From assembly GCA_008632985.1 (NCBI GenBank), contig QPGO01000229.1:62001-105282 (forward strand): DNA of 43,282 nt, in the 5' to 3' direction. The notes under the pieces are model-generated. The model had not been told where the DNA came from. It worked only from the letters and a program-made list of their open reading frames with translations, and made no database searches. Positions 4,266-43,282 of this stretch are shown piece by piece. Position 1 is the stretch's first letter. Each line of letters starts with the position of its first letter. Source of the DNA: Psammoneis japonica (taxonomy: Eukaryota). The translations under genes and the position numbers were made by a program.

Positions 4266-4710
4266 CAGGCCTGCAAGAAAAACACGACTGAGTTATATAA
4301 TTTATCTTCATACTTTAATACTCTATGATTTTAAAATCATTTGAAATTTTTCATCCAACGCCCAACGAAGCGATCAATGCAACCGGGGTACGTGTCGACT
4401 AAAGTGAAACCTACTCTCTACTCTCTCTAGCTAGAGCTAGAGTAGCTGGGCCCTGCGACGTACGGTATGTGTTGCTGCGCTATGACTTCACAAACATTTC
4501 CACAGTCCTCGGGGTGTACAAGTACCAGTCATGGATTTGAGTCGTGGACATTTCAAAATTTCAAATAGCCGGGACTTCACTGACTTACGTCGGTGCGCCA
4601 AAGTCCCGGATGGTGGGCGCATCAGTCCCACAACCCACAACATTTTTGTGATAAGCAGGAAGAGCAACTCTCTTAAGCATTGAACTCTCAACCTACTACT
4701 GTTTGCTGAC

Positions 4711-9604: not shown

Positions 9605-10799
9605 TGGGCGTACCACAGTTCTCGGCCCGTTCATTTTCTACGTGGCCTGGTACAACCCAAATCTGTGTAGATTCAGTACATTTCGCCCTGTAGAACAGTT
9701 TTTGGGTGTGTTTTCTGGCTCGCGACGCAAAATAACACGCAAAATAACACGGACAATGGCGTTTCGCCGATTTCAAAAATACGGTTGTTTCTGAGGTACT
9801 TTGTAGTGTACTCTCAACGGAATATCACACGTCATAGCATAAGGTGTGTGATGAGCTCGAGAGCACACAGGTTCACATGGGTAGATCATGGTGAAATTTT
9901 GAACTGAAGATTGGTGTTGACACCGCCGATTTTGTTGCATCAACACGCAACTTATGCATCACCATTCATGCTGTGCATTTCGTTGAGTACTCACATGCTC
10001 ACATTCTTTCAACTTACACATGCATTGTCTTTCCTCATTGTTGTTTTGTTCTGTAGGGTCTCCCTTGCCATGGGCCATCCCTGAGAGAGAAATGCTTGCT
10101 TTGAATGTCACTTCTACCTTGCAACGGCCACGGCAGTCTGACGACAAGTCCAAGTCACAGATGCAGCATCCGGATGACTTCATGATAAATGTAGAAGCTT
10201 GGGTCTTTGGTGTCTGAAGATGTTCAAGCTCTCAGCAGCTCAGATTTGTCGTCGAGCAATTTTGATGCGCATTTGACGTGCCTCCAGAAGGTGATGCGCA
10301 GTTTCACTCGACAGAGAAACGAGCCATGGCGATTATGATGGCTTACATTGAGTCTTACAGATACAAGGTAGTTTATAACACAGAAACATGTGACTCATTT
10401 GCCTCATCTGCTAAGCCTGTGCAACACATTTAGATGTTAAAGTCGGGGCAAATTGTGCACAATGCCAAGTCTCCAAAAACAGCACAAGAGTGCAAGCCCA
10501 AAAGAAGAATTAGCTTCACAACTTATCATGGGAGTGTAGAGCTTGTTTTTCTGGGGCATCATGTCTCTGTTGTTTTCATGGAGTGGACATTCACTGGTGT
10601 TGTTGCCGCCAACGTGCGAGTTCGCCTTGACAACATGTTGCACTGTATTCTGAGAGTTTGGAATGAAAAAACAACTTGCATTTACATCATTCCATCACAA
10701 CAGAAATGTGTGAGCTGTCCCTGGCCCTTTTGGAGAAATGGGGCAAGTGAAAGAGGAGCTACAGAAAGATGCGGACGATGCCATTTTGATGGATTGTCG

Positions 10800-13340
10800 T
10801 CAGGTGGTGTGTCGAGAGGAGTCGTGATGGAGTGCCGCTTTGTGTTTTTGTGCTGCGTCCATGCAGGAATGTACGTGCTTGGCTCTCGTGTAGTTTCCAT
10901 GTAAAAAGTGTGCCAGGCGATCTCTGGACCGCCCTCTTAATTGAGGTGTCCATGGGGTTGGCAGTTGTTGTGGTGGGGAAATGGGTGGTGGAGGAGGCGC
11001 GCGTAGAGCGCTGGGAGAGGGAGAGAAAAAGGGTTGGCCGAGGGTGCGGACAGACGGTCGTGAGGAGGAGTTGGTGATGGTGGGATGGCGGAGGAGGAAA
11101 GCTTGACATGCAGAGAGATGGTTGGAGAGAGCAAAGCCAAAATTGAGACTGAGGATTTGGGAAGCCCAGAGCAGGGGTGTTGCTGCATGACAGGAGGAGC
11201 CGAAGTGATCGGGTGAAAGTTGTTTCCAGGCCGCGTTGGATTGGGCGAGGAGGTTGGAAGGAGCCAAAAGGGAGTTGGTGCAGGCGGAGAAGGATGCTTG
11301 CGAGTTGGACAAAGAGGATGGGCTGGACCAGGGCAGTTTGGGAGGGAGGGGCAGGATGGAGGAAGAGGCAGTGGTGGAGGCGCCAAAGAAAAAGACATGG
11401 AAGTGATGTCCAATGCCTCCGAGGTGGTCGAAGGCAAAAGGGAGGAGGAAGAGGCCTGCTTGGTTGATGGCGTCAATGACATCAGAGCCATGAGCAGAGG
11501 ATGTAGAACGGCTGAGGAGCTTGTCCCGAGTGCTGCTGAGGCGAGCCTTGTTGAGCGGGTTTTCAGGGGTGGGCAAACCAGGTGCAGGAGGCGGGGGAGC
11601 GGGCGGTGCGGTGATGTCAATTGCCAGGAATTGGTGGGTGGATGGGGCGTTTGGTGGTGTGGAGCCGGGAGCAAGTTGGACGCCGACGTCGGCGGGGCGT
11701 TTTAGAGGGTGGTTGGGCAGGAGTCTGGCAGGGTCGAGGTGGACTTGTTGGCGAGACCGGCAGAGACCGCACATGGGGCCGAGGGTTTCGATGACAGTGT
11801 GGACAGTGTCACGGATGTGGTTGGACAGAGGGCCTTTGTGCATTTTGGAGCAGGCAAAGGCGTGATTGCCGCACAGGTCGGGGCGGGCGTGGCCGCATGG
11901 GCAGTTGTGTTGGGAGAGGGTGGGTGGGACAATGGGCAGGCGGAGCTTGCGTGGGGGAGGAGGATTGTGAAGAGGTGTGGCGGAAGGCGGTTGGAAGTGG
12001 GGGTGCGGGATGGGGAGTGAAGGCACAGGCTTGTGAGTGGGGACAACAAGGATGGGAGCACCGGTTGGATGGAAGGATCAGCGAGGAGCAGGGGAAGGGT
12101 GTTGTGCGTGTGATGGTGGAGGTGAGGGCGCTGTGAGAGACCGCGTAGGGTGTGGTGTTTGACAGCGTGTGGAAGGGAGGTGAAAGAGGAAGAATCAAGT
12201 TTGAGAAGGGTGGGAGCGCAGTGGCGGAAGATTTGGTAGAGGGAGAGAGCAGAGCGAGGGTTGGACCATGAACCAAGAGCAGCAGAGCAGCTTGAGGGAA
12301 GGTGGAAGATGGCACCACCGGTGAGTGGGATGCCATGTTTGGTGCAGCGGACAGATCGGAGGAGGGAGGTGATTAGAGCGGGGACGGCGACTGCGGAGAT
12401 GTCTCGACATCCGATGCCGCCTGAGGAGACGGGCAGGGTGGCAATGAGTTTGGAGGCAGATGGGAGTGGGTTGGCATGTTGGGTGAGGCAGGTGAGGAAT
12501 CGGAGGGAGTGGCCGATGATTTGGTCGGTGAAGGGGGATGCCCATTGAAAGGGGGGTGGGAAGTCGTCAGAGCGCAGAAGATTGCAGCGTGCATCAGCGG
12601 ACAGCAGGTGGTTGATGGAAGGGATGGAGCACTTGCGGAAGAGGGTGCTTTGTGTTTGTTTGTCAGTGAGGCGGACGGTGAGGTGATGAAGGTCGGCGGC
12701 AAAGGAGGTGGCCTTGTTGTGAAGGAAATCGAGGGTGAAAGCGGGCGAGCCGATGGGTCGACCGAGGAAGCGGGTGCCAGTGGTGATCTCGGGTGTGACA
12801 TGGGGCTGTTGTGGGGATTTAGGAAGGCCAAGGCTTTGGAGAGTGCGGCGGCGTCAGCAGGTGGGAGGCGGTTGATGGGAGAAGAGCCGGCAATGGATGT
12901 GAGAATTTGAGTCTTGGAGGTGTTGAGCTTGATGCCAAATTGGGGGCCGCAGGTGGAGAGTCATTTTGAGGAACCAAGGGAGCTGGGAGAAGGGAAGGAA
13001 GACATGGGTGTCATCAATGTACGAAGAGGCAGCAGATTTGGAACAGGGAGGGAGTTGATGACACATTTTGTCATTGATGGGGTGGAATGCGCGAGCAAAA
13101 ACAAGGCAGGAAAAGGCAGGTTTGAGGGGGCAGCCTTGAGCAAATCCCTCGGGTTGAGAGAAGGAGGGCCATTGTGAGCGGTGGTCACGGCACTGGCAGG
13201 TGTTAGGGTCTTGGCAGAGCAAGTCGAAGAAAGGCACAAGAGGGCGGCACTCATCGGAGTTGTCGAGGGTGTGGTGACAGGCATCACGGGAGCATTCGTT
13301 CTTGATCTCCGTTCTGCAGTGCAGTGCAGCCAGGGCCCTG
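10800..13340 (-). mobile_element. Decayed non-LTR retrotransposon ORF: reverse transcriptase + zinc knuckle + restriction-like endonuclease (CRE/Ambal-like)
   Basis: RT motifs EGFAQGCPL, SYIDD, GIKLNTSKTQIL (12.9-13.3 kb). C-terminal CPCG...DLCGNHAFAC...NHIRD, KRPADVG, LAIDIT, LLPFAFDHLGGIG (10800-12026 ORF). Many frameshifts and strong purine skew on the + strand. Confidence 0.8.
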
Positions 13341-16140
13341 TGGCGTGGCTCCAACAGAGTTTTTTTCAGATGATTGTGTCAAATCTGGGGAGGTTGTGTG
13401 CAAGATTCTTGCACACAACAGACAGCCCCATGTTCCACAGACATCCACAGAGATCAAGTGCCACATGCAAGCACTCCACAATGTTTCAGTGCTGTGGCAA
13501 CATTTGTTTGATCATCCCCTTGAATTGGCACCAAAGATTGTTCAAACCTTTTGGACTTTGTGCCTGCCGGCATTGTGCGGCCAACACAGAAGAAAGAAAA
13601 TGGCACCACAGTGAACATTGTCACAATTGATCTGTCCTTGTGTGGGGTTTTGAACAAATTGAAGATCTGCCCAATGCATTTTGTCCAAGCTGCACAAAAC
13701 TCATGGTGTCATCTGCCTCACTTTGTGCAAGCTTTTCTCTCTCAGATGCAAATGAGATGCAGGTGCCCATTGGAGGATTCTTTGCATTTTGTTGACTGTG
13801 GTTGTTGTTTTCCACACAGAGTGATGTTGCTCCTGAAACACCAGCTAAGAAACACAGGGCAGGAGCACATTTTTTCAACCACAGGTGTCCCTGCCTCTGT
13901 GAGCCCCCATGCTGTCATGCTGGTCAAGCGCTGTCAAAAATCAATGACAAGAAGGCACGGCCAACACCGCGTGACAACAAATGTCGTCATGAGCACAGAT
14001 GCTGTGCCTTTGGGTGTGCATTTGCTCAACACCTCTTTTGCTGCTCTTGCTCCTGTTGTTTGCCCATTTGAGGGTGCTGTCAACTTGTCAAATGATGTGT
14101 TGGTGCACACTCTGATCAAAGCTGATGTGAGCGCATTGAAGAGATCATCATTTTGGTGGCATTCTTCTCAATGTGTTGCAGCCTGGTTGAGCCAAGTGTG
14201 AAATTGTTGAATGAGATGCCATTGGCCTTTTGCTGTGCAGATTGCTGATCAACAGTTTCTTGAAGACTTGCTGTGTGCAAGAGGCAAGAGTTTCTCCACT
14301 GCCTGTTGATGTCTGCTTGTCAAATGACCCACTCTGCAGTGTGCATCACAGTTCGTGGGTGATCTGGGGATGAGTCTGGACAGCTGCTGTTCAAACAATC
14401 TTGTGCAGAATTTGCACTGGAACAGTCAGTCAATCAGTGCAATTGGGGTGTTCGGAACACTGTGTTCAAAAAGCACGTGTGAACATTGGAAAGACTCTAC
14501 ATCTTTTTCATCAGTTGATTGAAGTCAGCACTGACAAATGCCCCAAACACACAGATGGACAGAATTTATTCAAACAGCATTTGGCAGCTGTCCAGACACA
14601 TCTGGGGGACGTCTTTGGAAGTGAGACCAGCAAAAAGGTCTGCATGCCAGTGCGTTTGGGGCACTCAGCTGTGTGGCAAAAAAACAAAAATCACAGTCAT
14701 GGCAGAACTTGCTGCCAACAATGACAGCAAAGGAGACGGCTGCGACGTAAACTCCAGTTCACCACAATGTGTGTAAGACCTGTCATTCATGCCACCGCAC
14801 CAATTGCAAGTGATGACGAGAGTGCCTTGTCTCGCCATGTGAGCAACGTGCTTCAAACAATCCATGCAACGGCAGCATGCTTCCACCACTTTCCGCCAGT
14901 GGCAACATCCCGATTCCGTTGACAAAACTTTGTGGTGTCAAGGTGCTTGTTGACAAATCCATGCTCAACAGCAAGCCAAAGCAAAATGGAAATCATTGGA
15001 CAGATTCAAATCTTCAGGCTGTGATGCTGGGTCTCTCCAAGACAAGCTCATTTCAGTCAACTGGTGGTTTGGTCTTTCCGTTGAAGAGAAGCAGAGGGAA
15101 TTTGAAAGGCTCAAGGGTGTCCATCAGCATCCAACGGCATCAAACCAACATTTTCCCAAGAAGAAGAAGGTTGTTTTGTGCACCGATTCTCAAGATTTGT
15201 TGGGCGAGCATGTTGAGAACAGTGCAAGCGGCCAAAAGCTTTCTGGAAAGCACTGTCTCACAACAGGGATGATGTGATTGAGAAGGTGCAGCATGCAATG
15301 GGAAAACCAGTTCCAAATGCTGCAGCCTGCATGGAGAGGACTGTTGCTGACACCATGGAGTTGGTGTGCAACGTGACGGTTGCCTGCAACATGTCACTTG
15401 TTTTGGAGCATCAGGTTGGAGCTCCCCACAAATCTGGGGTTGCCCCATTGGATGAAGCTCTTCTGCCATGCCCAAAGAGAATTGTCATGGTGCCAAACAG
15501 TGAGAGGCTGCCATTCGATGAAGAAACAATTGGCTGCATGAAAACAGACAAGAACACGGAAAATGATCTTTGATGGCATCAACGAAAGCACCTGATGATC
15601 ATTGCAAGCAATTGCTTGAGCTCCTCATGCTGTTCTCACTCATCACACCCCTGCAGTGCTGCTGTCTAAAGATTCAGCTGTCATTGAAAGGAGCAATGTG
15701 ATGCAAGCCATCATCTGCTCTCTGCAGTGTGTGCCAGTGCCAGTCAAGACATGGCTGTTTCTGCAACAAAAACCATTGGAATTCAACAAGAAGCATCTGA
15801 TGTGTGCAATGCAACACATGCCTTAGATTGTTTCAACCACACTGGATCTTTTCTTAGAGCATGGAATGAATCCATGCGAGCGGGGCACTCCCTCCATGCA
15901 CAAAACTTGTCACTTGGTGTTGCTTTGTGCCTCTCTCGTGATGCACTCAAATCCCCTGCTTCCTGCCTTGAACCTTCATTCAAAGTCACAAGAACTTCTG
16001 GTCAGCAACTGAACAGTGTCTTCCTCAACTGAACCATGTTGTTGACCAACCAGCTCTTGTTGACTCCTTTCAGCTTTGAAGGTGTCTCAACTCCATGATT
16101 GCTTTTGCTTGTTTCTTTTGACTGCGGCTTGGATTGGGCT

Positions 16141-16174
16141 CAACAATGGAGAATTCTCAACAATGGAGAATTCT
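16141..16174. repeat. 17-bp tandem duplication CAACAATGGAGAATTCT x2
   Basis: Read directly. Confidence 0.85.
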
Positions 16175-19100
16175 TCAAACATCTCCACTTTGGTCCCACT
16201 CTTTTTCAACTCCTCCTCAATGTCAGTGGACGTCCTCCTGGCTTGGAACCTCTCAATGTTGTCTGCAACTTTCTGGCCAGTTGCCGAAATCTGATCCATG
16301 CCAAGGTGCCTGTGTCAGCATCGCAGTCTGTTCAGTTGAGCCACCCTCACTGTCCTTGAAGTTGACATTGTCTCCAGAATTCATCAGAGGCATGTGAGTT
16401 CCAAGGTCTGCTCTCTGAGATGTTGCCTCTGCCGTCCTTCTAGAAACATCAAGCAAAAGCGTGTCATGAGACTTGGTCAATCTCATGCATGACAGAAGTT
16501 CACAAAGTTGTGTTGGTTGGCTTCCTTCTGCTTGGAACGAGAGAACATTTGCCATGTGTCCAATGTCCTTCCTTGGATCAACTGAATGAACAATCAAATC
16601 TTGACAGATGGCAGCAACAAACACCTGGGATTGATGTCCAGCATTTTTTAAGTGATGTTTTGAAACAGAACGTGACCCGCACTCACAGCAAACAATCCTC
16701 TTTCCCAAGCATGCACGAATCAACTTTCGCCATGTGATGCAGCAGATCATTTGGAGTCTGCACTTCTGCAGGCACATTTTTGTCAGTCTCCACTGGCATG
16801 TGCGGCAATGGTGTCACTGCTGAATGCAACCACAAATTCGCATCAATGCAATTCTTTTCATCTGTTGACATGGGGGAAAGAACTTGGCATCAGCTGACAA
16901 GGTGCACTGGAGCTTTTCCACTGTAAGTTGCTGATTTGAGCTGTCACCCAGGAGCGACACTTTGAACATTGTGTTTGCCAGCAATCCCTTTCCCACCCAG
17001 TCTTTTTGGTCTTGGAGATCCACATCTTGCAAGTTCGTTGGCCAAACCTGAAATGCATCGAGTGCCTCATGACGAGACATCATTGTGCTGAATTTCAACT
17101 GGCTCCAGCCAACTTCTCTCTCTCTTTCTGTCATTGCACGTGCATCTCACTTCAAGTGGTGGTCACCAAATTTGTTGACTGCTGACGGTGCGGTCACACA
17201 GAGAGCACTGAAGCAGGCGTTTTCCTCTTTCCACCCCCAATTCTGACAGACAGCAAAGGCACAAAATGTGGTCGCAAGGCTTCAGTTCAACACGCAAGGA
17301 CTTGTTGTCGTCAGACACATCCAGCGAACATCATTGACAGCGCACAATTGCCTCCGTGATTGTCAAAGAGACACCGGCAGATTTCCATGGTGTGATGTGG
17401 GATCAAGATTCAAGATGTCAAATCTGGCGCCAGCTGAATGCCCCAAATGCACTTGCACACAGAGTGGGGCCCTGCAGACTTTTTTCATTGGCATCACTTC
17501 CAGAAGGCTCAGACAAATGTCAAGCACATCGTCAACCAGATTGGCTCCACAACAGTTTCATCAAAAGAAGGAATGGATTGGCCATGAGCGAAAGAGAAAA
17601 ACCTCCTGGGGGAGGTGTGTTGAAGACCAAGACAAGAGGACGATGGAGCTTTCATTGACATGGCAGACTTTGAGGAAATTGGACAGGCAGATGGAGTCAA
17701 TGACACGGGAATGAACTGTGTGTGTTCCAGATCCAGGAGATGTCGAAAAGAGGTGACTGTTTTGCTTCGACAATGCATGTTCAAATGCCGTCAGTCCAGA
17801 TCAACCAAAACAATTGGGGTGATTCTGCCCCACAATTTGCCAAAGCAATGCCCCGGATTTCATGAGAAACCACAAACCCAGGGATCCGGGGAATCCAGTG
17901 AATTCGTTGCCTCACGCCAAGGAGCAGTGGATTCTCAAACCAGCATTGGACAGACTCAATCAACGGTGAGTGACGATTTGATTCCGGTCGATGCATTTGG
18001 ACAAGCGACCAAACACCGCCACAGGACAGTGCAGCCACCAAAGGAACTGACAAAGCTCATCCACTTCCAAAAGCGAGGGACAACACTCTTGCTTGGAATC
18101 ATCCGGCAGCTTCAATTCTGTCCGGAGTGAATTTGCCAACAAGGCAATTCTGGGTTGCATCAAAAGAGCACGGGAAGGTGGCGATGAAATGACAGCGCGC
18201 TTTCCCGGAATCAGGAATTTGCTTTGCAACATCGTGCACATGACCAGTCAACAAAGTCTGTTTGATCGGAACCCTCGTGTTTTTGTTTTTCCTGCACTTG
18301 ACATTGATGGCATGCATGAGTGGGAAGGCACAGGAGATGTGATGCTGTCATGTTGTGCAAAGATGGCTGGCATCAAAGAAAAATTGGCTTGACTGGAGTT
18401 TGTCAGCCAAAGCCAAAAAAGCAACTTGACAAAATGTGATTGATGCGATGAACACACCGCCTCTTTGGTTTGCAAATTCCTTGAGCATGGCATCCTTCAG
18501 AAGTCTGCAACTGAAGTGAATCAGCATCAAAAAACTTGTGCAGAAAAGCAAGCTCATGCAAGATTTTGGGCAGAAAAAAAGGTTCCATCGCTCCTCGGGC
18601 TTTTTGATGACAGCATTGGACCACTGCTCAAGATCTCCTTTGGAGCACACGGCAGTGACAATCAGCGCCTTCACCCCACGGTCAACCCAATGCTTCTTTC
18701 ATTTGAGCAGGCAACAATGTGATGCGAAAAAGACTCGGCTTCAGAGCGGCAGCTGGCGCTGAACCGCTTGAACTTGATGACCTGTCAGAAGAGGGCAAGC
18801 AAAATTTACGAGCTTGTCTTCAACACCAGGCTCTTGAGGAGAAGGAGGTGTGTCCTCTCCAACCTTTGTGTGCATGCGTGCATTGACAAGCTTGTCTTTG
18901 TGCAATCCTTGCAAAATCTTGGCTCGTTTGCACATCTGTCTTTTTCCTCAGCATGTGTTCTGTCTTCAGAGGCTTGTTGTGCACGTGTTTGGCTTGGCTT
19001 GTGAACTCTTCATGTTTGGCCATGGGTGCCATCTCTGCCAGTGTCACGATTGCGTTTGTTGCAGCACACTGTCCTCAGCCAAAGAGTTGTCAGGATTCTG

Positions 19101-19204
19101 TCCTTCCTTGGATGTGGTGGCTTCTTCATCAGTGGGTCATTTTCCTTGTCATCAGAGCTGTCATTGTCACAACATTTGCTTGTGAACAAATCCATTTCTG
19201 GCTG

Positions 19205-19336
19205 GTGCAAAAAAGCCAAAGCCTTTTTCAATCTTGCCCATTGAGGCCATTGATGTTCAAAGCATTGCCAGTGCAAAAAAGCCAAAGCCTTTTTCAGTCT
19301 TGCCCATTGAGGCCATTGACGTTCAAAGCATTGCCA
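19205..19336. repeat. 66-bp tandem duplication (2 copies, 2 mismatches)
   Basis: GTGCAAAAAAGCCAAAGCC...AAAGCATTGCCA at 19205 and 19271; differences CAATCT/CAGTCT and GATGTT/GACGTT. Confidence 0.9.
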
Positions 19337-20855
19337 AGCATTTGTTGTTGTGCTTCCTTGGCTGGATGTTGCTCTGGAAAGCAGAGAGAACACCCAATTT
19401 CTTGATTGAGCCTGGCAACCTCCTGTCTGCTTTTCAGGTTGCTTCTGTTCACAACTGGGAAAAGATTGGGTCCTTCATGACAAATGGAAGCTTGCCATGG
19501 AACTGCCAGACTTGAGAGTTTGTGAGCACAGGAAGCTTTTGAAGGAGCAAGAGGCTGGGATGAGTCAGCCAGTGTTGCTGCCCCCAGCAAAAGCGCTGTG
19601 TGCAGTGGATCCTTTTAGTGTTGTCAAAAAGAACTGCTGGGCTGATGCATGGCTGTCAAAAAAGTTCAAATCCTGCCTGAGACAAGTGTCAGTGGGGGCA
19701 GCATTGAGTGTCGCAGGGCCCTGTCTTTGTTTAAATTTCAACACAACACCACCTGGTGTCCATTTCTGGACTTGCTGTGTGCTCTTTTCATTTCCTTTGG
19801 TTGTTTGTGCTCAGGAATTGCATCAATTCTTGATGTGGAGCACTTTTGTTTTGGGACTTTTTTGGAAAACCAAGAGCCCCAAACTTTTTGATGGAAGGAA
19901 GCAGCATCAGAAGGCATGGCAAAATTGTTTCTTTTCAATGCAGTGCAAAGTCAAACGATCGTTTTTGTTGTTGCCAACATGTCAACTCTGTGTTGTGACC
20001 AATTGCCACACCACAAGCTGGTGTGCTCTTGCCACCCACAAAGTTGATGGGCTTTTCAATGTTGCACAACAGAATGCCCCCATTGTGCACAACAATGGAG
20101 CATCTCCAAGTCAGGCATGAAGTCCAGTGCATCAGATCCAATCTTCATCAGCAATCCAAAGTTGGTTTTGTGATGTGGCATCAGTGCTGGCTGCGCTGAC
20201 AAAGGCGCTGAGCGCGCCACATTGTGTCATCATTTTCTTTCTCAATTCTTCTCAGCAGTGTGACCAAAAATGTGGAATGTGATGCATCAGCACATGTGTG
20301 GCTGACCTTCAAGTTTGGCTGAACTGTGAGACTTGGTTGTAGAGGATGATGCAGCAAATTGGCATTTTGCCATTGTTTTCACTCTTTCAAACACCCCAAG
20401 CAAACAAAAAAGCAAAAGATGAAAAAATGAGCAGCCCAGCTGCCAGCCAAATCTTTGCAAGCTCCAAAATTTGTGTCTTGTTTGGATTTTAACACTTCAA
20501 CCACCAGGGAGCAAATCTCCACCTTGTGATGTTGATGTGCCATCCATTTGTGTGACAGTGCAATGAACACCACACAAAAATGTTGCGCCATGTGCAGTCT
20601 GCACAAAGTGTGAAATCTCCACCAACTCACCGAGATTTGTGCGGTTGAAGGATGACAGCTCCTCTCCATCATCCACAGACAAAGCATGCAAAAAAAAAAA
20701 TGGCACTAAAAGTTGACGTTGAACTTTCTCAATTGCAAAAATGGGGCTGGCTCCCCAGATTTTTTGGTGAATGTGCACTCCAAAACACAAATTGCTCCAA
20801 TTTTCTGTTGCTCATGTGTCTGGGGGCATTTTGTTCAACACATTTGCAACACAAG

Positions 20856-20887
20856 TGAGCAAATCTCCACCCATGGAGATTTGCTCA
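20856..20887. repeat. Perfect 14-bp inverted repeat with 4-nt loop
   Basis: TGAGCAAATCTCCA-CCCA-TGGAGATTTGCTCA. Confidence 0.9.
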
Positions 20888-22193
20888 AGTCTGGTGGTTG
20901 AAGGGTTAAAATGAGCTGTGTGTTGGGAGTGTTTCTGCCTGATGTTGGTGCCACAGATTTGCTCATGTTTGCAGTTGTGAGCCAGAAGGTTGCTCATGTT
21001 GCTGCAACATGACACCTTCCACACTGTGGCTGTGCATCGCTCACCATGGTGCCTCATGCAATGGTGCAAACAAAAGCAGCTGTTGCAGTTGCATGGCTTG
21101 GTGCACACTCCATGAGGACCCAATCATGGATTTTCTGAGCTGCAGCCTTTCCCAGTGCTGCGTGGACTTCTGGTTTCGTCAAATGGAGAAAAAACAATCT
21201 CTTGGAGACTTGGCTCTTTTTTTCATGTTGCGCAGCCTGGCTTGACCTGGCTGGCTGGTCAGCAACAATCAATCTTGCCTTTCCTCTCTTTGTTGGCTGA
21301 GTCATGGGTGGTGTGGCTGCGCTTGGTGTGTGACTTGGTGATGAGATGCCAGCCAGCACAACAGGCTCTGACTGATTTTGGAAAATGCTCAAGCAATGCT
21401 GAGTTGATTTGGAGGAACTCTTGTGAGCTCCATTGCTGCTGATGGTGTTTGCTTGCTTCAACAAGGGGTTTCAGCCCAGCAACCACAAGCCAGGCATCAC
21501 CTCCTGAAAGATCCAGTGACACAAATCTGATGGATGACAAACACCTTTCTTTCTGCACTCTTGCTGCATGCAAACAGAGCTGCCCCCCCCCTCCCCCCTG
21601 TGCTCACATGTGGAGAGACTCTCTCTCTCAATGGCTGAAACACTGCCAGGTGGTCACAAGCAGAAAACACTGACTTGGCTCAGTTTGGCTTGAGCCCATG
21701 GCTTGGCAAGCAGCACCACATTTGATGGCACCCGGTGGATGTGGGCCAAAATCCACAACCTTGGATTGCATGGCATGGTGAGCAGTGCAAGCATCAGACT
21801 CAATGAAGCCTTGTGTGCCAGGACCATTTTTGTCATCTTTGTCATCTGAGCCAGCATCTTTTGGCTCTGAAGCAGGAATCTCACCATTGGTGTTTTTGTC
21901 TTCAGGATCTTGAGTGGTGCCTGGCATGGCTGTGTGATCTTTCTTTGACCAAGACTTTGTCAATGCAGCATCTGTGGGTGAGACACTTTTTCATGGTCTG
22001 GGTGGCTTGCACAAATGACCACAGAGAGATCCTTTCACACCTTCAACAGAGGTTGACACCATCCTTTGGAGGATGTCCCTTGTGGCAGCTGCTGGTTGTG
22101 ACATTTTCCATGAGCAGCTTCAACAACAACATGGGGAGCTTGACAAAAAAACTGCAGAGAAGCTTGGGAAGGTTGCTGCATGACAGAGGTGAA

Positions 22194-22217
22194 GCAGCAG
22201 CAGCAGCAGCAGCAGCA
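22194..22217. repeat. (GCA)8 microsatellite
   Basis: Read directly. Confidence 0.9.
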
Positions 22218-22803
22218 ACAACATCCAGAGGAGCAGGGAAGACAGCACCAGCTGTCTCCACTTCTCATGCTTCCACCATGGTCTGAACCGGATGGCATCA
22301 ATGGAAAACAGAGGTGAGAATGCACGTGCAATGTCAGGCCTGGGCGGGGCGAAGCTGAGCTTGCTGACAACAAACCGGAGCCCCGCATGGCCGGCGGTTG
22401 TGCGCCAGCATGCCACTGTGGTTTGAGTGATGAGAGGGGGGTTAGAGAGATGTGGCTTCAAATGGATGTCATCAACAAAGATGAGTGCAACTCATGAGTT
22501 GGAAAAAAAATGCCGCCGTTGACGAGGAAGAGAACCTCGCCCACTCAGTTTGAGAGAAAGCACTGGAAAGTGCAGAAGAAAGATTCCGCCAGACAGCTGG
22601 GTTGTCTTGGTGAGGTGGCTGGGCAGGGCACACACCCATCTCTCGGATGAGGGGGGCCGCACAGGTGTGGACAGGAGTTGAAATGATGCGTTGAATGTGT
22701 GTTGCTCTCTGGCACAATAAAAAAAAGGAAAAAGTGGAGATTTTATGTTGTCATTTCATTGACCACTCAGTGGTTGGTGATTGCAGACTTTTTCGTGTCG
22801 GTC

Positions 22804-22853
22804 CGGCAGTCGGGGGGTCGGGCAGTCGGGGGTCGGGCAGTCGGGCAGTCGGG
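22804..22853. repeat. G-rich tandem repeat (GGGCAGTC interspersed with GGGGGTC) near the right edge of the mutated block
   Basis: CGGCAGTCGGGGGGTCGGGCAGTCGGGGGTCGGGCAGTCGGGCAGTCGGG. Confidence 0.85.
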
Positions 22854-23641
22854 TTGTCCGTCTGAATTTGAAAGTGTGTCCCTCGGATTTTGGAACGGGA
22901 TGGGTTGTTTAGTACAGATGAACTCTTCGGATTCGTAGAATGATCATTGAGGACATGAGAGGTCGTGGGGACATCCTAAAAAATCGATAAATTCCCTACG
23001 ACGGGTACGTGGCACGGTTTTTCAGGAGAGCTCGAAAGTGCTGTAAAATTGGGATTGCCGGCGTGGCATGTTGAAAAATGTATACAGTTATAAACAAAGA
23101 TAATTTATCGTGAATTCTACACGAAACAGTCATATTTGGGAAAACATATCGAACAATAAGTGAGTTTGTGCGATGCGCTATTATGGCGATAAATTGGAAA
23201 AAAAAGAGTGTCCGTGCACCTCGCTACAGCCCCAAAAATGGCATGAGACATCAAATATAACGGTCATCCGCGTCACCGGTGCGGTGGCCACGCCACTCAG
23301 CCGCCACAATGCCGGCCCCGGCGGTAGAGCCCTACGTACGTACAGGCAATACAGCATGCAACGGCACACACCCACACCCACAAAGAAAGACAAGTGGTCA
23401 ATGCTCCCCGCAGGCCTGGTTATTATTTGATGAAATGACAGAGACGACAGAGACGACTCAGACGACTAACTCTAAAGAAACCATGACTGAACTTTTGTCA
23501 ATCGATTCCGAAATTCTCGCTCGCTCTCCATTCCACTCGCTTTCGTTCTCGGATCAGAGACTATCTCTGATCCTCTCACAATATCTAGAACGCTCTTTTG
23601 TGCAAGGTATTGACTTCCTCTAGCATCAATTTTTGAAAGTC

Positions 23642-34117: not shown

Positions 34118-34399
34118 GCTGTCGTCAAGTTTAAGGATGGATCGTTGTTTTGTGCCTGGGAACGTCGTCGGCCGCCTCCCATCTCCCATCGCTACTGTAT
34201 GGAACTTTCTGTCGTCTTCGGTTCCCTTCTGCCGCCCGGGCGGCGGTGCCGATTTTGAAATCAATGAAATATTAGATTTATATAGTTTTGAAAACAAAGA
34301 TAAGATTTTGCGTCTGTCCTCCTGTCGAAGATTTCACCCCTGCGCGAAGACGTCGCGCACCCAGCATTTGGTCGCGTCTGCTGATGTCAAGCCTTTCAG

Positions 34400-35950
34400 G
34401 CACGAAGAGCCATGGCCGCCATCCAACCAAGCACCAGCGTTTCACCACGACTCACGTAGATTCTCCGAGGATTCTGGCACACACGCAATCCGAGGCGGAA
34501 ATCAGTTCAGCTGATTCAAGTCCAGATGGTTGTTTGCTCTCAATTTTTTGGCTGGCGACTCAAACATCAAGCGCAGGCAAGTGCATTGCTTGTGTTTCTC
34601 TCTTGACCATGAGCTCAACAGACACTGTTTAGAGACAAGTGAACACAGGGTGAGTGTGTTGTTGAAATGACCGTGTTGTTTCTTTTGCTTTTTCCATGCC
34701 ACGCTTCTTCATCTCTGCTCTCCTCGCCACTCTCTTGTTGCTTTCTGACGCGTTCCAGCTCTGCCAGCTGCCAGGTGGGACCTCGCACTGCTGCGCTGTG
34801 ACATCAACAGTTTTTTGGATCACATCGCATGTCGCGCATGCACATTTCTGTGTGTTGCATTCTACGAAATTGTTTCATGCTCCCTGTTTTGCGAAGCCAA
34901 AGGCTTTCCATTTTCAACAGTTGTGAGAATGAAAATGCACTGGGTGTGTTCTTCAATGTCTGTAGAGTGTGCCCGGGCAAACTGTTGTTGATGTGCTCCA
35001 AGTGTGAAGGAGGAGATGCATTCATAAAATTGCCTCTTTTTCTGCTGGTGAGATCATTCACATTTTCATTGCAGTGCAAATTCACTGCGGAGCTCGCACG
35101 TGGAATTCTGCGGGCCCAATGTCACACGGAGTCCCACCTGGGACTGGAACCCGTCTTCTTTCACATTGACAGCATTGAGGTTTTGCACCAGCTGTGTTTG
35201 GGAAGAAGTCAAAACTGTTTTTCAAGACAGGTGGAAGAGAAAGATTGTGTTCAGGCCTGCAAGGGACATGCAAACATGTTCAGAGAAGATGGAAGCCATT
35301 TGGGAAGCTGGCTTTGTTGCTTTCACACCCAGTGCTTCAGACTTGCATCAGGAATGTGCAAGCAAGTTGATGCTGTTTTGGAAGCCTGCTGTCATGGAAT
35401 GCAGCCAAGACTGTTTGTCAAGATTGGTGGAAAAGAAGGGTTGAATTCAGGACCACATGTGATGCATGAATGTGCCCAGGCACAATTGAAGCCGGCTCAA
35501 AAGAAGTTGGTTTTGTTGTTTTGCCAGCAGAAGAGAAATTGACAACTCAGGCTCACATTGGGAATGTGCAAGTTGATGTCATTTTGGAAGCCAACATCAA
35601 CACCAGCAAAGCAAAAAGACAAACCAGCCAATGCACTGCACAGTTTGGAAACATCTGTGTCATCTCTTTGTTTTGCACATGCAAAAACTCACATGTCCAC
35701 ACCGTAGCAGCCATGGTGCGGGAACTGCTTTTGCCATGGATGCATTGTGAAACAGCATGCCACACAGTCCAACTGCTCTGCCTGCACTGGCCTGGCAACT
35801 CAAAAAAATGGAAGATTGTTTGTGGCTCTGCTTGCAGCACAACAAAGGTTGTGGTGTCAATTTCTGGATGAAACTAGATGTCACACAAATGACCATAGGA
35901 ATTCTTTCTCGATCTTTCTTAACAACTCTGGCAATCCACTTTCATGCACA
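34400..35950. mobile_element. ~1.5-kb decayed TpA/CpG-depleted insert, probable transposon remnant of unknown family
   Basis: Same compositional signature as 13.3-22.3 kb; lies between OTU1 and the Deg protease; no recognisable domain or ends. Confidence 0.5.
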
Positions 35951-36406
35951 CCTGTCACAATGTCATAACCTCCAATTAACTCGCCATTGACGTAGGGTTG
36001 TGGAATGGTCGCCGCGGGGGGCCACTTGCCGCTTTCGAGGGACTGCTTCTAAACACGCTGACGATTCTCCAGTTGAAAACGGGCAAGTAGACTCAAGGGG
36101 GTAGAGAGACTCTCGTTTTCACGGGTAAGCGTTAACTCCCCGAAAAAGCAAGTCGCAGCCGCTGAACGCGGGACGCTGTGCTGGCCCAAGAATTGTTTTT
36201 CATTTTTAAAAGATGGGCTACAGTGTGCGTTTACTGATTCGAAAGATGGCATACCGGTCCAAGCAGAGACGAGGACCGACTGCTAACGACCTGTTCTTCT
36301 CTTTCTTAACACCAAAACTCAAACCAGCTTAAACCCCACATTTCCCTTTATTTAAAAGCAACCGTTGTCGCCAACTTTTCTTTCAATGTTGTTCATCACA
36401 GCCTTT

Positions 36407-38127: not shown

Positions 38128-39057
38128 TGTTTACGTTCGTTTTAAAAGACGGAGTTGAAAGTGGTGAGCGATGGGAAAGGAATACGGGGCCGAGGCACGA
38201 ACGCGACGTCGAACAACTCAGTCGATCGAATCTTTGAAGACGACTTTGAGACTGGAGACAAAAAATTTCTTGGATCTTGTCCCCGAACGAAAAATTGAAA
38301 TTTCGGTGTTCGCAGTGTCACGCGAGCGCCGCGTCAGCACCCTACAGGACTCCCACTGCTCGAGTGGGGGTGGGCCTAAGTAATTCTAAAAACCGTTAAC
38401 GGCCGTTACTATGTAATTTGGTAGTATTTTGGTACTCTATATATGAGGCATTTATGTAGAAATTACGTACGTACAATTAATACTACGAATTGCAAGACAA
38501 TTGCGCGATTCACGTGCCCGAAGGGTGATTGTTGAAATTCGAGCTTCGCGCACGTAGAGCCTGTAGAAAATGTATGAGGCTACGACTAGCATAAACGTAC
38601 CTGTTATACCGTTCAGACATTTTGTATTGGATTTTATGTACCCCTTTATTTAATGATAACGGTTCCTGCCAAAACAAATAGCAGTTTTTACATGTGTTAC
38701 ATATACAAATGTCTCACAAAAGTCAATACTTTTCAACTACTGTATTTAATGATTTGAAGATGTTCACATTCAACCGTCGATACTCCGTTTGTCAACTCCG
38801 TCTTTGAATACTACTTCATATATGCTCGAATGTTTGATTAAATGGCGTGGCGGGCGTGGGCATGACCTTCATTTGAATTCGTACTTAGGAAGAGTCATTC
38901 TATATATTGCCTCAGCATTTTGTTCGTTAAGTGCGTAGAACAGTACAAATCTTACACAAAAAGTCATATGCAGTCATTCAACATTCTTTTATATACGTCA
39001 TTAATAAATTATACTAATCTTTTTTATATGTCAATGATTATACCATATTGCATTTTA

Positions 39058-39265
39058 TGCCAGTCGTAGCCCCATACCAGCCAGCCCGAAGTGCAGTGTC
39101 TCGCACCTTATTTTTCTGATATATAGTATTAATGAACCTATTAGATATAACGGAAGCCGTTGTAACGGGCTTCGCTGAAAGCGACCCTCGTTACCTCGGT
39201 CTTTCGCTCACAATTTTGTTATCACTGAAGTCTTTATCTCGTTAAACCTTGCACTGTAATTACAG
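39058..39265 (+). repeat. Putative 5' LTR (boundaries uncertain)
   Basis: Starts with TG after AT-rich flank, contains TATATA, lies just upstream of the element ORFs. The second LTR is outside the window. Confidence 0.35.
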
Positions 39266-39282
39266 TCGATTCAAAGAACTGG

Positions 39283-39498
39283 ATGGAGACTAGGAATAAT
39301 ACAAACAAATTGACTAAACGTGAGAAAAGAGAACTGCGCGCAAGAGCAGCAGTTTGGGCTGTTGAGCACCAGAAACAAGTGCAACAACGCAAACGACACG
39401 AACAGAATTTGGCGAGCCGAGTGCATCATTTGGAGTCAAAGGTAGAGTCCCTGGAGAGGACCATTGAACAATTGCATTCCCTTTTTCATGATGAGTGA
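39283..39498 (+). CDS. Small coiled-coil ORF upstream of and overlapping the gag start
   Basis: 71 aa, ATG start, amphipathic LASRVHHLESKVESLERTIEQL. The stop lies within ATGATGAGTGA at the gag start. Confidence 0.45.
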   Translation: METRNNTNKLTKREKRELRARAAVWAVEHQKQVQQRKRHEQNLASRVHHLESKVESLERTIEQLHSLFHDE

Positions 39499-40330
39499 AT
39501 CGTTGAAGGAGCCTTGCATTGGCTGTGAAGCCAAATTTGAGCATTCTGACTTGGAGGAAGTGAAATTGACCCAATCGCATGATGACGGTAGCACTCGTAC
39601 AAAAAAGTGTCCGCGTTTTGATGGCACTCATGGCATTGAAGCATTGTTATTCGTTGAGGATCGTTTTCGTAAAATTGCTGTGAAATTGGAGCACACCACT
39701 GGCGAGGAATTGTTCGAAAATTTCGAGGAAGTGCTTGCGGACACTGCAGAGGACAAGTGGGCGAACTTGACCAATGCAATTGACGATGCCGATAAAACTG
39801 TCGAGCGTTTTGATCAGGAAATCAATCGTTTTTACTTGTCTCATTGTGACAATGAAGCGCGTGATGCAATGATTGAATGTTTGCTGGCTTTGAAAAAACC
39901 ATTCAAATCTGAAGTGCAGGCGCGTGCAGATCGCATGGAAACCTTGATTCGGCACTCCAACAAACTTCCAGGCAATGCTCCTCAAGTCAACGAAGCTCAG
40001 AAGAAAAAGATGACATTCGATGGCTTTCCTCGTCCGTGGCGTGAGATGCATGCTCGAGCAGGACGAGCGATGGCGAACGATGCTCTCGCTGAGATCATTG
40101 GTCACACGAACAACGAGAAATCTTTTGCTGACAAGAGCAGCAACAAAAAGCAGGACAAGAAGAGGAAAAGCAACAGTGCTTCGTCTCAAGCTTCAAGATG
40201 CTCTCGTGGCAACAGTGGTAGAACGGATCTAGAATCTAGATGCCCGGTGCATGCAAATCATGACCACAAGTGGAAGGATTGCATTTTGAATCCAGAAAGC
40301 CAAAACCTGTGCCAACCCCTAAAACTGTGA
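39488..40330 (+). pseudogene. gag: Gypsy gag (hypermutated)
   Basis: FDGTHGIEALL...LFENFEEVL...W, basic region, CPVHANHDHKWKDC zinc knuckle. Confidence 0.85.
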
Positions 40331-43282
40331 CTCCCAAACCATTGAATGTGGTGCCAACGACGTTGATGGCGGCGCGCACCATTCAAAATCAAGAGAGCAA
40401 GCGAGTGTCGCGAGTGCTGTTGGATTCAGGAGGTGCCAACACTCTCATTCATTCTCGAGTTTTGCCGAAGGGAGCGAATCCAACCATGAACGATGAAGGA
40501 CGGTTGAGCTTTCAGACGGCAGCCGGACGACATGAATCCTCCCGATGCGTTGTTATGAAGGACTTGACATTGCCAGAATTTGACAAGTCAAAACAAGTCG
40601 ACAGTGTTGCGGCTCAAGTTTTTGATGCCCCATGCAAGTGTGATTTAATTTTGGGACAAGACTTTTTGTCGAAAGCCGGAATCGTGCTTGATTTTCGATT
40701 TGGAACAATGAAGTGGTTGGAAACGTCGATCCCAATGAAGCAATCCAATCATTGGAACTCAGTTCAGAATTGGTTGGATGCACTGGAAGACGACGGAGAG
40801 GATGAAGACGATGAGGGAGCCTTCGGACAATCTTTTATGATGGACGCCAAATGCGAGAAAGCGTCATCCGCGAAAGTGGCGCAAGCTCAAACTCACTTGA
40901 CTCAAGAGCAACGTGATGAGCTACAAGCAGTGCTTGAAAAGCATGAAACCCTCTTTGATGGAACGCTTGGCAAAATGTCCACATGAGACTGTTCACTTGG
41001 AAGTTGATCCCAACACTGTTCCCTTCCATTCTAAGGCTTGCGAAGTGTCCAAGAGGGATGAAGCCGTTTTTAAGAAAGAACTACAACATCTGTGTAACAT
41101 TGGCGCACTGGAACCAGTGGGACCAACTGAATGGGCAGCCGGAACTTTTGCAACTCCCAAAAAGGATGGACGAGTTCGATGGGCATCCGATTTTCGAGAG
41201 TTGAACAAGGCACTCAAACGAAAGGTCTGTCCTCTGCCGATTGTTCAAGACGTCATTCACCGACGCTCGGGATGCAAGCACTTGACCAAGTTGGACCTCA
41301 CTGTGTTTTATTGTCACATCGAGCTTGACGAAGAATCCAAGGATTTGTGTGCCATTGTTGCTCCGTTTGGAAAATTTCGACATTGTCGATTGGCCATGGG
41401 TTTGAAAACCTCTCCGATATTGCTCAAGCCATCATTGAAAAAGTGGCAAAAGGAGTCAATGTTGAAACTTACATTGATGACATTGCTCAATTTGATGATT
41501 CGTTTGATGCTCACATGCGTCGACTCGATGAGCTGTCATCCAGACTAGAAGAGAACAATCAAAAATTAACCCACTCAAGTGCGAATGGTGTGTCCAAGAG
41601 ACGGATTTTTTAGGCCATTGGCTCATGCCTGCAGGAGTCCGACCGTGGAAGAAGAAAGTGGAAGCGGTGCTGCAAATGCAACCACCAAAAACTGTGACGC
41701 AACTACGATCGTTTGTTGGTGCGGTGACTCATTGCCGCAACATGTGGCCTCGTCGTTCACACGTGCTCGCTCCACTCACGAAGTTAACAGGCAAGAGCAA
41801 GTTGGAATGGACCCCTGAATGTCAACGAGCCTTTGAAGATGTGAAAACCTAATGCTGGACGACACCCTTTGGGTCTACCCGAATCACAACAAGCCATTCC
41901 ACATTCATGCTGACTCTTCGGACTGTCAGATGGGAGCCGCAATTGTGCAAGACGGGAAACCAGTGGCTTGCTGGTCCCGAAAACTCAGTGCAGCACAACA
42001 GAACTACTCTACGATTGAAAAAGAATTGTTGGCGGTGGTGATGTGTTTCAAAGAATTTTGAAGCATGTTGTTTGGAGCTGACTGTCACTGTTTTTACGGA
42101 TCATAAAAATCTCACCTTTCGTGTGCTCAATTCTCAACGAGTTCTTAGGTGGCGACTCTTCTTGGAAGATTTTGCCCCAACTTTTGAATGCGTTGATGGC
42201 AAAGACAATCTCTTGGCGGATTGTTTTTCAAGATTGCCACGCACGGACCCTCCTGCGGAAGGGAAGTGTGCTCCTGACAAGGGCAAACTGATTGATTTTA
42301 AAACCATCGACCCTGCCATGCTGCCGCATGAAGAAGAGCTGGACGACCAAAACAGTGTGTCTCATTTTTCCCATCGTCGTGAAGAACCATCTCCATTTTA
42401 CTCTTCCGTCGTGGACGACCCCGAATTGTGTGAATCATTTTTGAACTGTCCTTCTCTCGAGGAAATGCAAAACCCTACAACCATGCAACGAATTCAAGAA
42501 TGCCAATTCATCGACGTGGAGCTGAACAACATGCGACAACAATGTCCAGAACGCTTCATGGTGGAACATGTGAATCAGCGTCCTGTAATTTGTCATCGTG
42601 CTCGACCGAATGATCCTCCGACTGCATGGAAAATTTGTGTTCCAACGGCGTTGCTGCATGATGTCATGCAATGGCATCACAGAATTTTGGGACATGCAGG
42701 AGTGCACCGAATGCATTCCACTGTTGGCGCACATTTCTGTCATCCTGCCCTTCGTCAATCTTGTGAAAGATTTCATTGTGCCAATTGTCAACGTTTGAAA
42801 ACTTTGGGCCCTGGATGTGGGGACCTGCCTGAACGGGAAGCGCCTTCATTGCCATGGACAGAAGTTGCGGTTGACCTCATCGGTCCCTGGAAAATTGAAA
42901 TTCAAAACCATGAAATCGAGTTCAACGCTTTGACTTGCATTGATGCCGTTTGAATGTGACTGAACTCATTCGCATCGACAACAAAACCTCATCTCACATT
43001 GCTCAACAATTTGAAAATTGTTGGTTGTCTCGTCATCCTCGTCCAAACCGGTGCATCCATGACAATGGTGGAGAATTCATTGGAGAGGACTTTCAATTGT
43101 CATTGCAATGAGCAGGAGTGGAAGACGCTCCAACTACGTCGCGCAACCCACAAGCCAATGCGGCATGCGAGCGCATGCATCAAACTGTTGGAAATGTCTT
43201 ACGCACTTTGCTTCATGTTTGTCCTCCACAGAATGTTGAGCAGGCTAATCAACCAGTGGACAATGCATTGGCAACCGCCATG
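40270..43282 (+). pseudogene. pol: Gypsy pol (PR-RT-RH-IN) with frameshifts, stops and systematic Tyr->Cys/His changes
   Basis: [68 protein letters not shown]...C..C; VAVDLIGPW; IHDNGGEF; NPQANAACERMH. Confidence 0.95.

Follow-up and report, generated by a model that had tools for sequence, protein, structure and literature searches.

TpA depletion and tyrosine loss in a decayed Ty3/Gypsy element of Psammoneis japonica: probable TpA-specific hypermutation of mobile or foreign DNA

Why would a retrotransposon lying among genes of normal composition have lost most of its TpA dinucleotides and, with them, most of its conserved tyrosines? The question is raised by a 43,282-bp stretch of DNA from Psammoneis japonica (assembly GCA_008632985.1, contig QPGO01000229.1, positions 62,001 to 105,282), the whole of which is called the window below and whose first letter is position 1. 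At its right end, the initial annotation had described a Gypsy element reading cysteine (Cys) or histidine (His) where tyrosine (Tyr) is expected, and had proposed a repeat-directed A:T to G:C mutator acting at TpA. We examined this proposal by combining dinucleotide statistics, codon-level comparison with homologues, and contigs of other copies of the element from a public sequencing run. A TpA-specific mutational process restricted to three blocks of the window is very likely, and the best explanation overall, which we consider probable, is TpA-specific A:T>G:C hypermutation confined to mobile or foreign DNA.

Loss of TpA and of conserved tyrosines in a dead Gypsy element

The best-defined of the three blocks, block C, is the internal part of a dead, multicopy Ty3/Gypsy element, which the end of the window cuts within the integrase (Table 1). 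Open reading frames (ORFs) between 40264 and 43282 match Pfam families in the order aspartic protease, RVT_1, RT_RNaseH and Integrase_H2C2, which is the order of Ty3/Gypsy pol; the same domains, protease, reverse transcriptase (RT), RNase H and integrase, are also present in the homologues. We call the element dead because alignment to homologues reveals six frame changes (near 40972, 41430, 41547, 41865, 42068 and 42950) and three in-frame stops met by homologues along the block. Its relatives among public proteins share 35-57% identity with it, and those that carry a name come from diatoms (Cylindrotheca closterium and Ditylum brightwellii). No close paralogue was found in the protein collection, where the top identity, 47-57%, was to ORF 42042-42953, and when 307 Gypsy homologues were searched against the window by tblastn, none of the 753 high-scoring segment pairs fell outside 39.2-43.3 kb.

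Block C contains 41 TpA, compared with a mean of 277 (standard deviation 12, minimum 237) in 2000 mononucleotide shuffles, which gives an observed-to-expected ratio (O/E) of 0.15. Chunks of equal length taken outside the blocks hold 133-186 TpA, and the TpA O/E there is 0.60. In 80 related Gypsy loci from metagenomes, TpA O/E ranges from 0.45 to 0.95 (median 0.72), placing block C at z = -4.6. TpA is its sole strong dinucleotide outlier against these relatives; the other z values are +2.5 for TG, +1.4 for CA, -0.8 for AG, -1.7 for GG and -0.2 for CG. Since AG, GG and CG are not raised, the A>G change is tied to a preceding T and is not general. AA stands at O/E 1.27 (z = +2.5) and AG at 0.79, with AA, CA and GA undepleted, and TC, CC, GA and GG all lie less than 2 standard deviations from the relatives. 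CpG O/E is 0.88 in block C and 0.91 in the relatives, while the G content is 0.246 compared with 0.214. Along the element, TpA O/E per 500 bp runs 0.16, 0.13, 0.11, 0.19, 0.23, 0.21 and 0.03, without a gradient.

The effect on coding capacity was assessed by aligning the 307 homologues to the window with tblastn, which gave alignments for 980 codons; in 373 columns the consensus reached 60% or more. Only 4 of the 19 conserved Tyr columns still have Tyr, the remainder reading Cys (10), His (4) or Phe (1), compared with retention in 314 of 354 conserved columns for the other residues (Fisher p = 1.4e-10). At the 27 columns where the share of Tyr is 40% or more, the window reads Cys at 13, His at 8, Tyr at 4 and Phe at 2, so that both strands are affected. 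Arg, by comparison, is kept in 19 of 22 conserved columns, and the Cys and His codons of block C thus do not derive from CGY codons through CpG decay. Over all aligned codons, the window and its homologues differ in Tyr (0.5% vs 3.4%), Cys (4.1% vs 2.0%) and Ile (3.6% vs 6.5%). Of 55 changes at conserved columns, 23 match the rule TpA>TpG/CpA when the table is read by eye. They include, besides the Tyr changes, Thr>Ala after a codon ending in T (41351, 41360 and 41909), Val in place of Ile or Met after T (41243, 42723 and 41303), ATA>ATG, and GTA>GCA (41105).

Most of what the initial annotation had read from the pol motifs is borne out by these comparisons, namely the replacement of Tyr by Cys or His, the accompanying Thr to Ala and GTA to GCA changes, the involvement of both strands of the element and the enrichment of the changes at TpA over other contexts. 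The motifs quoted in its support are a different matter: the rule of Tyr loss stands, but FLGHWL and RWASDF are not diagnostic as examples of it. At the FLGHWL column (41616), 63 homologues read Tyr (28), His (26) or Phe (9), and at the column of the Ala in RWASDF (41183), 152 homologues include Ile (64), Val (61) and Cys (18).

Two further features of the element can be noted here. A stop at 42059 is TGA where the homologues read Arg; this fits a CGA>TGA change, and CpG decay thus contributes to the inactivation of the element as well. On the + strand, a 72-codon ORF at 39283-39498 has its ATG just 5' of gag, and its end overlaps the first ATG codons of gag. Its product has leucines in a heptad-like pattern behind a basic stretch, which looks like a bZIP domain by eye, and in Pfam it gives sub-threshold coiled-coil-type matches alone (BLOC1_2, E=0.0011).

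Extent of the signature in the window and beyond

The same depletion occurs at 10440-22900 (TpA O/E 0.05 overall; block A, divided into A1 and A2) and at 34300-35875 (block B), and the edges of the TpA-poor blocks are sharp. Both of these regions lie outside the coordinates given initially, in which the start of the feature had been placed at 39488, whereas the TpA-poor block C begins near 39316. Over 86 windows of 500 bp, TpA O/E and the mean O/E of TpG and CpA are inversely related (r = -0.81). TpA O/E is at or below 0.30 in 36 of these windows, of which 33 lie wholly inside the three blocks. The other three are 22501-23000, which straddles the right edge of block A, and the genic windows 1-500 and 1001-1500. 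In the latter two, TpA O/E is 0.25-0.26, TpG and CpA reach just 1.24-1.28 and CpG is normal, and their low TpA is probably due to coding composition.

The fate of the missing TpA can be followed by bookkeeping, taking the dinucleotide density outside the blocks as baseline. Together, A2 and B have lost 431 TpA and 439 CpG (870 in all) and gained 469 TpG and 365 CpA (834 in all), whereas block C has lost 123 TpA and 38 CpG and gained 107 TpG and 36 CpA. Because losses and gains are nearly equal, TpA must have become TpG or CpA, with CpG decay feeding the same pool in the older blocks. In block C most of the TpA is gone and CpG is almost intact, which indicates that the TpA process is separate from CpG decay and, for this element, faster.

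The genes around the blocks do not share this composition. In nine host ORFs, Tyr makes up 109 of 4145 residues (2.6%) and TpA O/E is 0.43-0.65, in agreement with the initial statement that flanking genes keep their Tyr and TA.

The TpA that survive in the three blocks (n=88) show a bias in their flanking bases. ATAT, ATAC/GTAT and ATAG/CTAT together account for 2 of the 88, compared with about 27 expected from either the host or the relatives as background, while CTAA/TTAG, TTAA and CTAC/GTAG are over-represented (chi-square p about 1e-10 with either background). The order of survivor contexts is alike in block C and in A2 and B combined. Lost N-TA-N and gained N-TG-N contexts do not correlate (r = -0.09 and -0.04), so the gained contexts are uninformative and the flanking-base preference is read from the survivors. 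To judge from these tetranucleotides, the bias may represent a site preference of the mutator, or it may instead come in part from TpA newly made by back-mutation.

Other copies of the element were sought in the contigs of run X1, from one public sample (runs X2 and X3 barely cover the stretch); among the data sets listed for 36000-43282, none was of RNA. At a likeness of at least 80%, 1529 contig pieces of X1 fall on 38500-43282, 325 of them at 99% or more, so the element family is multicopy. Word depths of the X1 contigs are near 65, and the longest contig is 315 kb. The copies vary at 745 places, 580 of which are transitions. Individual sites were compared among the best-supported 40 of these 745 places, which form 26 sites in block C, and 20 of the 26 are interchanges among TA, TG, CA and CG. 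At three of them (41906, 42040 and 39886) the window has TG or CA where nearly all other copies have TA, at two (40230 and 41083) the window has TA where TG or CA is found elsewhere, and at five one side reads CA and the other TG. CpG is involved at 10 of the 26, including seven at which the window has TG or CA and other copies have CG. At 41906, the His codon of the window is TAT (Tyr) in 15 other contigs (2525 of 2668 in depth). In addition, one-base indels distinguish other copies at 40972, 41413/41415 and 41561, and the frame changes of the window coincide with indels of this kind that the other copies do not share. These unshared indels, together with the TA found in other copies, indicate that the copy in the window has some damage of its own, comprising indels as well as TpA changes.

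Immediately upstream of block C, the stretch at 38574-39315 is also multicopy, with a summed contig depth of 865-4878 in X1. Loose contig ends at 38571-38574 and 39090 suggest repeat boundaries near 38573 and 39090, and one X1 contig of another copy joins 39267 to 39491, skipping 39268-39490 and linking the upstream stretch to gag. This stretch has escaped the depletion. Possible reasons are that it is younger, through recombination or nesting, that the process is guided to the internal region, or that editing took place before integration.

Near-complete absence of Tyr is also found in other Gypsy proteins. Among 213 homologues that cover at least five conserved Tyr columns, there are six in which Cys or His occupies 40% or more of them. 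One protein (P0314) has no Tyr in 699 residues; two (P0062 and P0071) have none and a third (P0013) has 0.9%, these three forming one family with 74-80% identity among its members; and P0416, P0333 and P0355 present a similar near-Tyr-free picture. Identity among the four near-Tyr-free groups, and between them and the window, is only 30-50%. DNA encoding these homologues was found neither among the 80 metagenome loci (best identity 35-60%) nor in the viral contigs searched. Judged by their amino acid composition, the near-Tyr-free proteins, which represent at least four other Gypsy lineages, probably bear the traces of this process in further elements or hosts. With TAA and TAG lost, one stop codon out of three is left, which would help their ORFs to stay open and be predicted as proteins.

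Table 1. Coordinates of the TpA-depleted blocks, the parts of the element and the spared upstream stretch in the window
Feature	Position	Strand	Characteristics
Block A1	10440..13400	-	TpA O/E 0.14; strongly G-rich on + strand; possible RT remnant on - strand
Block A2	13400..22900		9.5 kb; 21 TpA (O/E 0.03); CpG 0.29, TpG 1.74, CpA 1.77
Block B	34300..35875		1.6 kb between host genes; 7 TpA (O/E 0.07); CpG 0.47, TpG 1.63, CpA 1.80
Upstream multicopy stretch, possible long terminal repeat (LTR) or leader	38574..39315	+	73 TpA, O/E 0.98; GC 0.36
Block C, TpA-depleted Ty3/Gypsy interior	39316..43282	+	Identified by Pfam, TpA count, Tyr columns and multicopy state in run X1
gag-like ORF	from about 39489	+	No Pfam match
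Aspartic protease ORF	40264..40986	+	PF13650, E=4.4e-5; Tyr>Cys at 40639, 40852 and 40976
Reverse transcriptase over three frames	40901..41613	+	PF00078, E=1.1e-7; frame changes near 40972, 41430 and 41547
RNase H ORF	41837..42061	+	PF17919, E=9e-20
RNase H end, integrase zinc-binding domain and start of core, two frames	42042..43282	+	PF17921, E=7.3e-6

The content of blocks A and B was examined with Pfam. No family reached its cutoff in ORFs of at least 90 amino acids in A1, A2 or B, and the 106 ORFs of at least 50 amino acids in these blocks gave sub-threshold Cys-rich zinc-finger-type matches alone. A search extended to E 10 found RVT_1 alone, in A1 at 12854-13378 on the - strand (E=0.018, 15.2 bits), which is under the Pfam cutoff. 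Between 11001 and 13000, GC is 0.59-0.60 and the GC skew on the + strand is +0.51 to +0.55, so that the - strand reads as very long ORFs rich in Pro, Ser and Thr; this skew goes beyond what TpA>TpG alone explains. A 66-bp tandem duplication lies at 19205-19336 in A2, and its copies are distinguished by two transitions, one A/G and one T/C, the latter in a TG/CG context. Block A has, at its right edge (22800-22853), a short G-rich tandem repeat that is GGTCGGGCAGTCGGG-like, its units being 8, 15-16 and 23 bases long.

Host genes in the window form long ORFs without interruption, are intron-poor and have no near-identical counterpart among public proteins. A DegP-like host ORF has its top match, at 68% identity, in a marine-protist transcript of MMETSP. 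A parvulin-like ORF at 3-515 on the - strand has a hydrophobic signal at its start and then an Ala-Phe-Thr-Ala-Pro-like junction, which we take to resemble the 'ASAFAP' motif of diatom plastid targeting.

Possible origins of the signature

The initial annotation had known of no described pathway with this outcome, a statement that is now out of date. In the full-text library searched for TpA-specific hypermutation of foreign DNA, also with regard to diatoms, and for A-to-G hypermutation of retrotransposons at large, we found one description, a preprint on the chlorarachniophyte Bigelowiella natans (Mettrop et al., bioRxiv 10.64898/2026.01.13.699255 (2026)), whose main text reports the same TpA>TpG/CpA hypermutation arising de novo in integrated viral DNA. 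In the window, the changes are specific to one dinucleotide context, restricted to blocks with sharp edges, present on two strands and in part private to one copy. In the mechanism that we propose, an adenine that follows T would be deaminated in integrated, probably silenced mobile DNA and the resulting inosine would be read as G. In a dead Gypsy copy, TpA would then turn into TpG where A>G falls on the sense strand and into CpA where it falls on the other. The deaminase, of ADAT2/TadA type or another, would be directed to silenced DNA. The same process would be near completion in the two older blocks, where CpG decay would then add further TpG and CpA, and its outcome would be the loss of Tyr codons and the permanent inactivation of the element. 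By analogy with B. natans, we think it probable that the process acts on integrated DNA; whether its agent is a deaminase we regard as an even call.

Several observations weigh against this mechanism. No domain marks A2 or B as mobile DNA. On the sense strand of block C the gain in TpG (+107) exceeds that in CpA (+36), and Tyr>Cys (13) exceeds Tyr>His (8), which would also suit editing at the RNA level. This bias is tempered by the fact that the relatives already have TG at 1.24 and CA at 1.14, and 13 vs 8 is not significant. Within the family, transitions go both ways, the 745 variable places comprising 162 A>G, 128 T>C, 155 C>T and 135 G>A; the best-supported 40 places, at which individual sites were compared, are too few to give a polarity for the family as a whole. 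The upstream stretch at 38574-39315 is undepleted and even rich in ATAT-type sites, elsewhere the most depleted context; as this stretch is multicopy, its sparing argues against simple targeting of whole repeats. Finally, with respect to timing, the window contains no LTR pair and no paralogue of the element, just the 66-bp tandem duplication and short chance matches.

The alternative that survives best is editing before integration, in which a TpA-preferring adenine deaminase would act on the genomic RNA (TA>TG) and on the single-stranded minus cDNA (TA>CA) during retrotransposition, followed by insertion of the edited copy. Such editing would be to adenine what restriction by APOBEC3 or ADAR is in known systems. 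The target in block C is indeed a retroelement, its sense strand gained more TpG than CpA, and in A1 TpG likewise exceeds CpA on the - strand, where the weak RT match lies. The sparing of the LTR- or leader-like stretch would fit as well, as in the APOBEC3G gradients of HIV, where plus-strand strong-stop synthesis quickly covers the LTR. But two separate substrates are required to account for changes on two strands, no gradient in TpA O/E exists along the element, and A2 and B are symmetric in TpG and CpA (Table 1) and are without a retroelement domain. Furthermore, according to the main text of the B. natans preprint, the signature arises there in situ in non-retroviral, single-copy integrated DNA. 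Our assessment is that editing before integration is unlikely, although it accounts for some features of block C.

Error-prone repair of the Pol-eta type (WA>WG) in silenced chromatin, or decay of a modified adenine, would give the same A>G outcome without a deaminase, and the restriction to blocks would fit a chromatin-dependent repair. The signature of Pol-eta, however, covers AA as well as TA. In block C AA is not depleted and AG is not raised, so AA has not been consumed and the Pol-eta-like candidate of the initial annotation has to be given up. The near-complete loss of TpA, down to an O/E of 0.03, and the strict specificity for TpA fit the site preference of an enzyme better, and we consider this class of explanation quite improbable.

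A sequencing or polishing artefact, in which a base modified at TpA within silenced DNA is systematically called as G or C although the genome has TA, is more improbable still. X1 may represent the data behind the assembly of the window, in which case it is not independent. On the other hand, the 325 pieces at 99% likeness or more, the depths near 65 and the 315-kb contig suggest accurate reads on the inferred platform, and the private one-base indels and stops are those of any decayed element. The same loss of Tyr is found in six of 213 homologues that come from other data sets, and the main text of the B. natans preprint describes the same kind of mutation called de novo from Illumina data.

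The weakest alternative is intrinsic composition, that is, avoidance of UpA by selection on RNA stability or codon usage, or mere decay of methylated CpG: UpA is scarce in most coding sequence, including the host ORFs of the window, and CpG decay is real in A2 and B and at the seven of 26 sites, among the best-supported 40 of 745 places, where TG or CA stands against CG, but none of the 80 relatives comes near 0.15, functionally important Tyr is lost in a copy with six frame changes, CpG in block C is close to that of the relatives, Arg is mostly kept, and CpG decay cannot remove TpA, so that we give this explanation hardly any credence.

Hypermutation of TpA in integrated mobile or foreign DNA thus remains our preferred reading, and it can be extended, tentatively and with more doubt than confidence, to an old defence widespread in the stramenopile-alveolate-rhizarian (SAR) supergroup, both in chlorarachniophytes and in diatom-like stramenopiles. 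Such a defence would deaminate adenine at TpA in chromosomal DNA as a counterpart of repeat-induced point mutation (RIP), would inactivate invading DNA, retrotransposons included, through the loss of Tyr codons, would remove TpA with a 5' A or a 3' T first and YTAA/TTAR last, would spare the LTR or leader because transcripts or small RNAs, rather than repetition, guide it to the internal region, and would leave Tyr-free ORFs as its footprints. The signature in the window and the near-Tyr-free proteins suggest that marine protists have a general, RIP-like defence of their genomes, and that this is not the peculiarity of a single strain. By comparison across lineages they also open a way to the deaminase responsible, which would naturally edit adenine in DNA with a preference for TA; if the SAR-wide defence is real, comparing the hosts of Tyr-free Gypsy ORFs would reveal the enzyme. 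The signature also accounts for the failure of domain-based annotation to recognize such elements, in which long spurious ORFs arise once TAA and TAG have gone, and the combination of low TpA, high TpG plus CpA and missing Tyr provides a genome-wide marker with which more cases can be found.

Comparison with known mutators and editors

In Neurospora and other fungi, RIP converts C to T mainly at CpA, making TpA and AT-rich DNA. The signature in the window resembles RIP in that sharp-edged mobile or duplicated DNA is affected, that one transition type in one dinucleotide context prevails, and that coding capacity is destroyed. It differs in that TpA is destroyed (O/E 0.03-0.15), CpA and TpG are raised and G+C is gained. 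With respect to the duplication that RIP requires, block C is multicopy (1529 pieces), yet the equally multicopy upstream stretch is spared. Fungal RIP itself was rejected as an explanation, since TpA is lowered, CpA and TpG are up and G content exceeds that of the relatives.

ADARs, which in animals hyper-edit dsRNA derived from repeats as well as viruses or retroelements, act on RNA with a loose preference for the 5' neighbor (U>A>C>G) and are, to our knowledge, metazoan-specific. They share with the present signature the A>G outcome and the U or T favored before the edited A, but here AA, CA and GA are unaffected, and heritable changes on two strands are not expected from the editing of one RNA. 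Hyper-editing of RNA by an ADAR-type enzyme was rejected on these two grounds. APOBEC3 and AID deaminate cytosine in retroviral cDNA and retroelements, giving G>A or C>T in TC, CC or WRC contexts. The likeness lies in a host deaminase that restricts invading nucleic acid by mutating it in a dinucleotide context; the difference is that adenine is changed here, with normal CpG, GG and AG statistics in block C. APOBEC/AID was likewise rejected, because the polarized changes are A>G and T>C, and TC, CC, GA and GG stay within 2 standard deviations of the relatives.

Decay of 5-methylcytosine also yields TpG and CpA and co-occurs with the TpA process in A2 and B (CpG 0.29 and 0.47). It cannot remove TpA, however, and block C is stripped of TpA while keeping its CpG (0.88); CpG decay alone was therefore rejected. 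In setting aside RIP, CpG decay and APOBEC-type editing, we concur with the initial annotation.

A further comparison is with the tRNA adenosine deaminases TadA and ADAT2-ADAT3, whose natural substrate A34 follows U33. A-to-I editing of fungal mRNA, a side activity of such enzymes, likewise takes place with U at -1, and TadA has been engineered into DNA base editors. The position of A34 after U33 means that a preference for T or U before A is built into the TadA/ADAT fold. By this analogy, the TadA/ADAT2 family is the most plausible source of the enzyme, and we advance ADAT-type DNA activity on algal chromatin as a hypothesis.

The system most similar overall is that of B. natans, as described in the main text of the preprint (10.64898/2026.01.13.699255). 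Mutation-accumulation lines gave 302 new single-nucleotide mutations, 231 of them within two integrated viral regions; 230 of the 231 were A>G or T>C, all of those at TpA. Mutation there ran at about 1000-fold the background, in some lines alone, and the larger of the two targets is present as a single, transcriptionally silent copy. The B. natans genome contains 124 clusters of windows poor in TpA and rich in CpA and TpG, and domains of reverse transcriptase, endonuclease-RT and DDE type are over-represented in its coding sequences with low TpA. As the agent, which they have not identified, the authors propose a DNA adenine deaminase similar to ADAT2, and they cite work in which amphioxus and trypanosome ADAT2 act on DNA (10.64898/2026.01.13.699255).

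As far as the main text of that preprint allows the comparison, the two systems agree in that TpA changes to TpG or CpA on both strands, that foreign or mobile DNA alone is hit while genes show a normal spectrum, and that the long-term trace is TpA depletion coupled to a gain in CpA plus TpG in clustered windows. They differ in several ways. New mutations were counted in B. natans, whereas here the signature is known from sequence composition and codons. The depletion here reaches O/E 0.03-0.15, compared with a Rho of 0.45 for the region of nucleocytoplasmic large DNA virus (NCLDV) origin in B. natans, and the share of TpA among dinucleotides is about 4.1% outside the blocks (1048 of 25278), compared with 6.0% reported there. 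CpG decay is superimposed in the older blocks here, and the survivors show a flanking-base bias, while neither 'trinucleotide' nor 'context' is used in the main text of the preprint. Where B. natans has a giant-virus or virophage insertion as target, the best-defined one here is an LTR retrotransposon in many copies, and the host is apparently a diatom-like stramenopile and not a rhizarian, the main text of the preprint being without diatoms. What the window adds to the B. natans system is thus the signature on a retrotransposon and, apparently, a second major lineage beyond the chlorarachniophyte.

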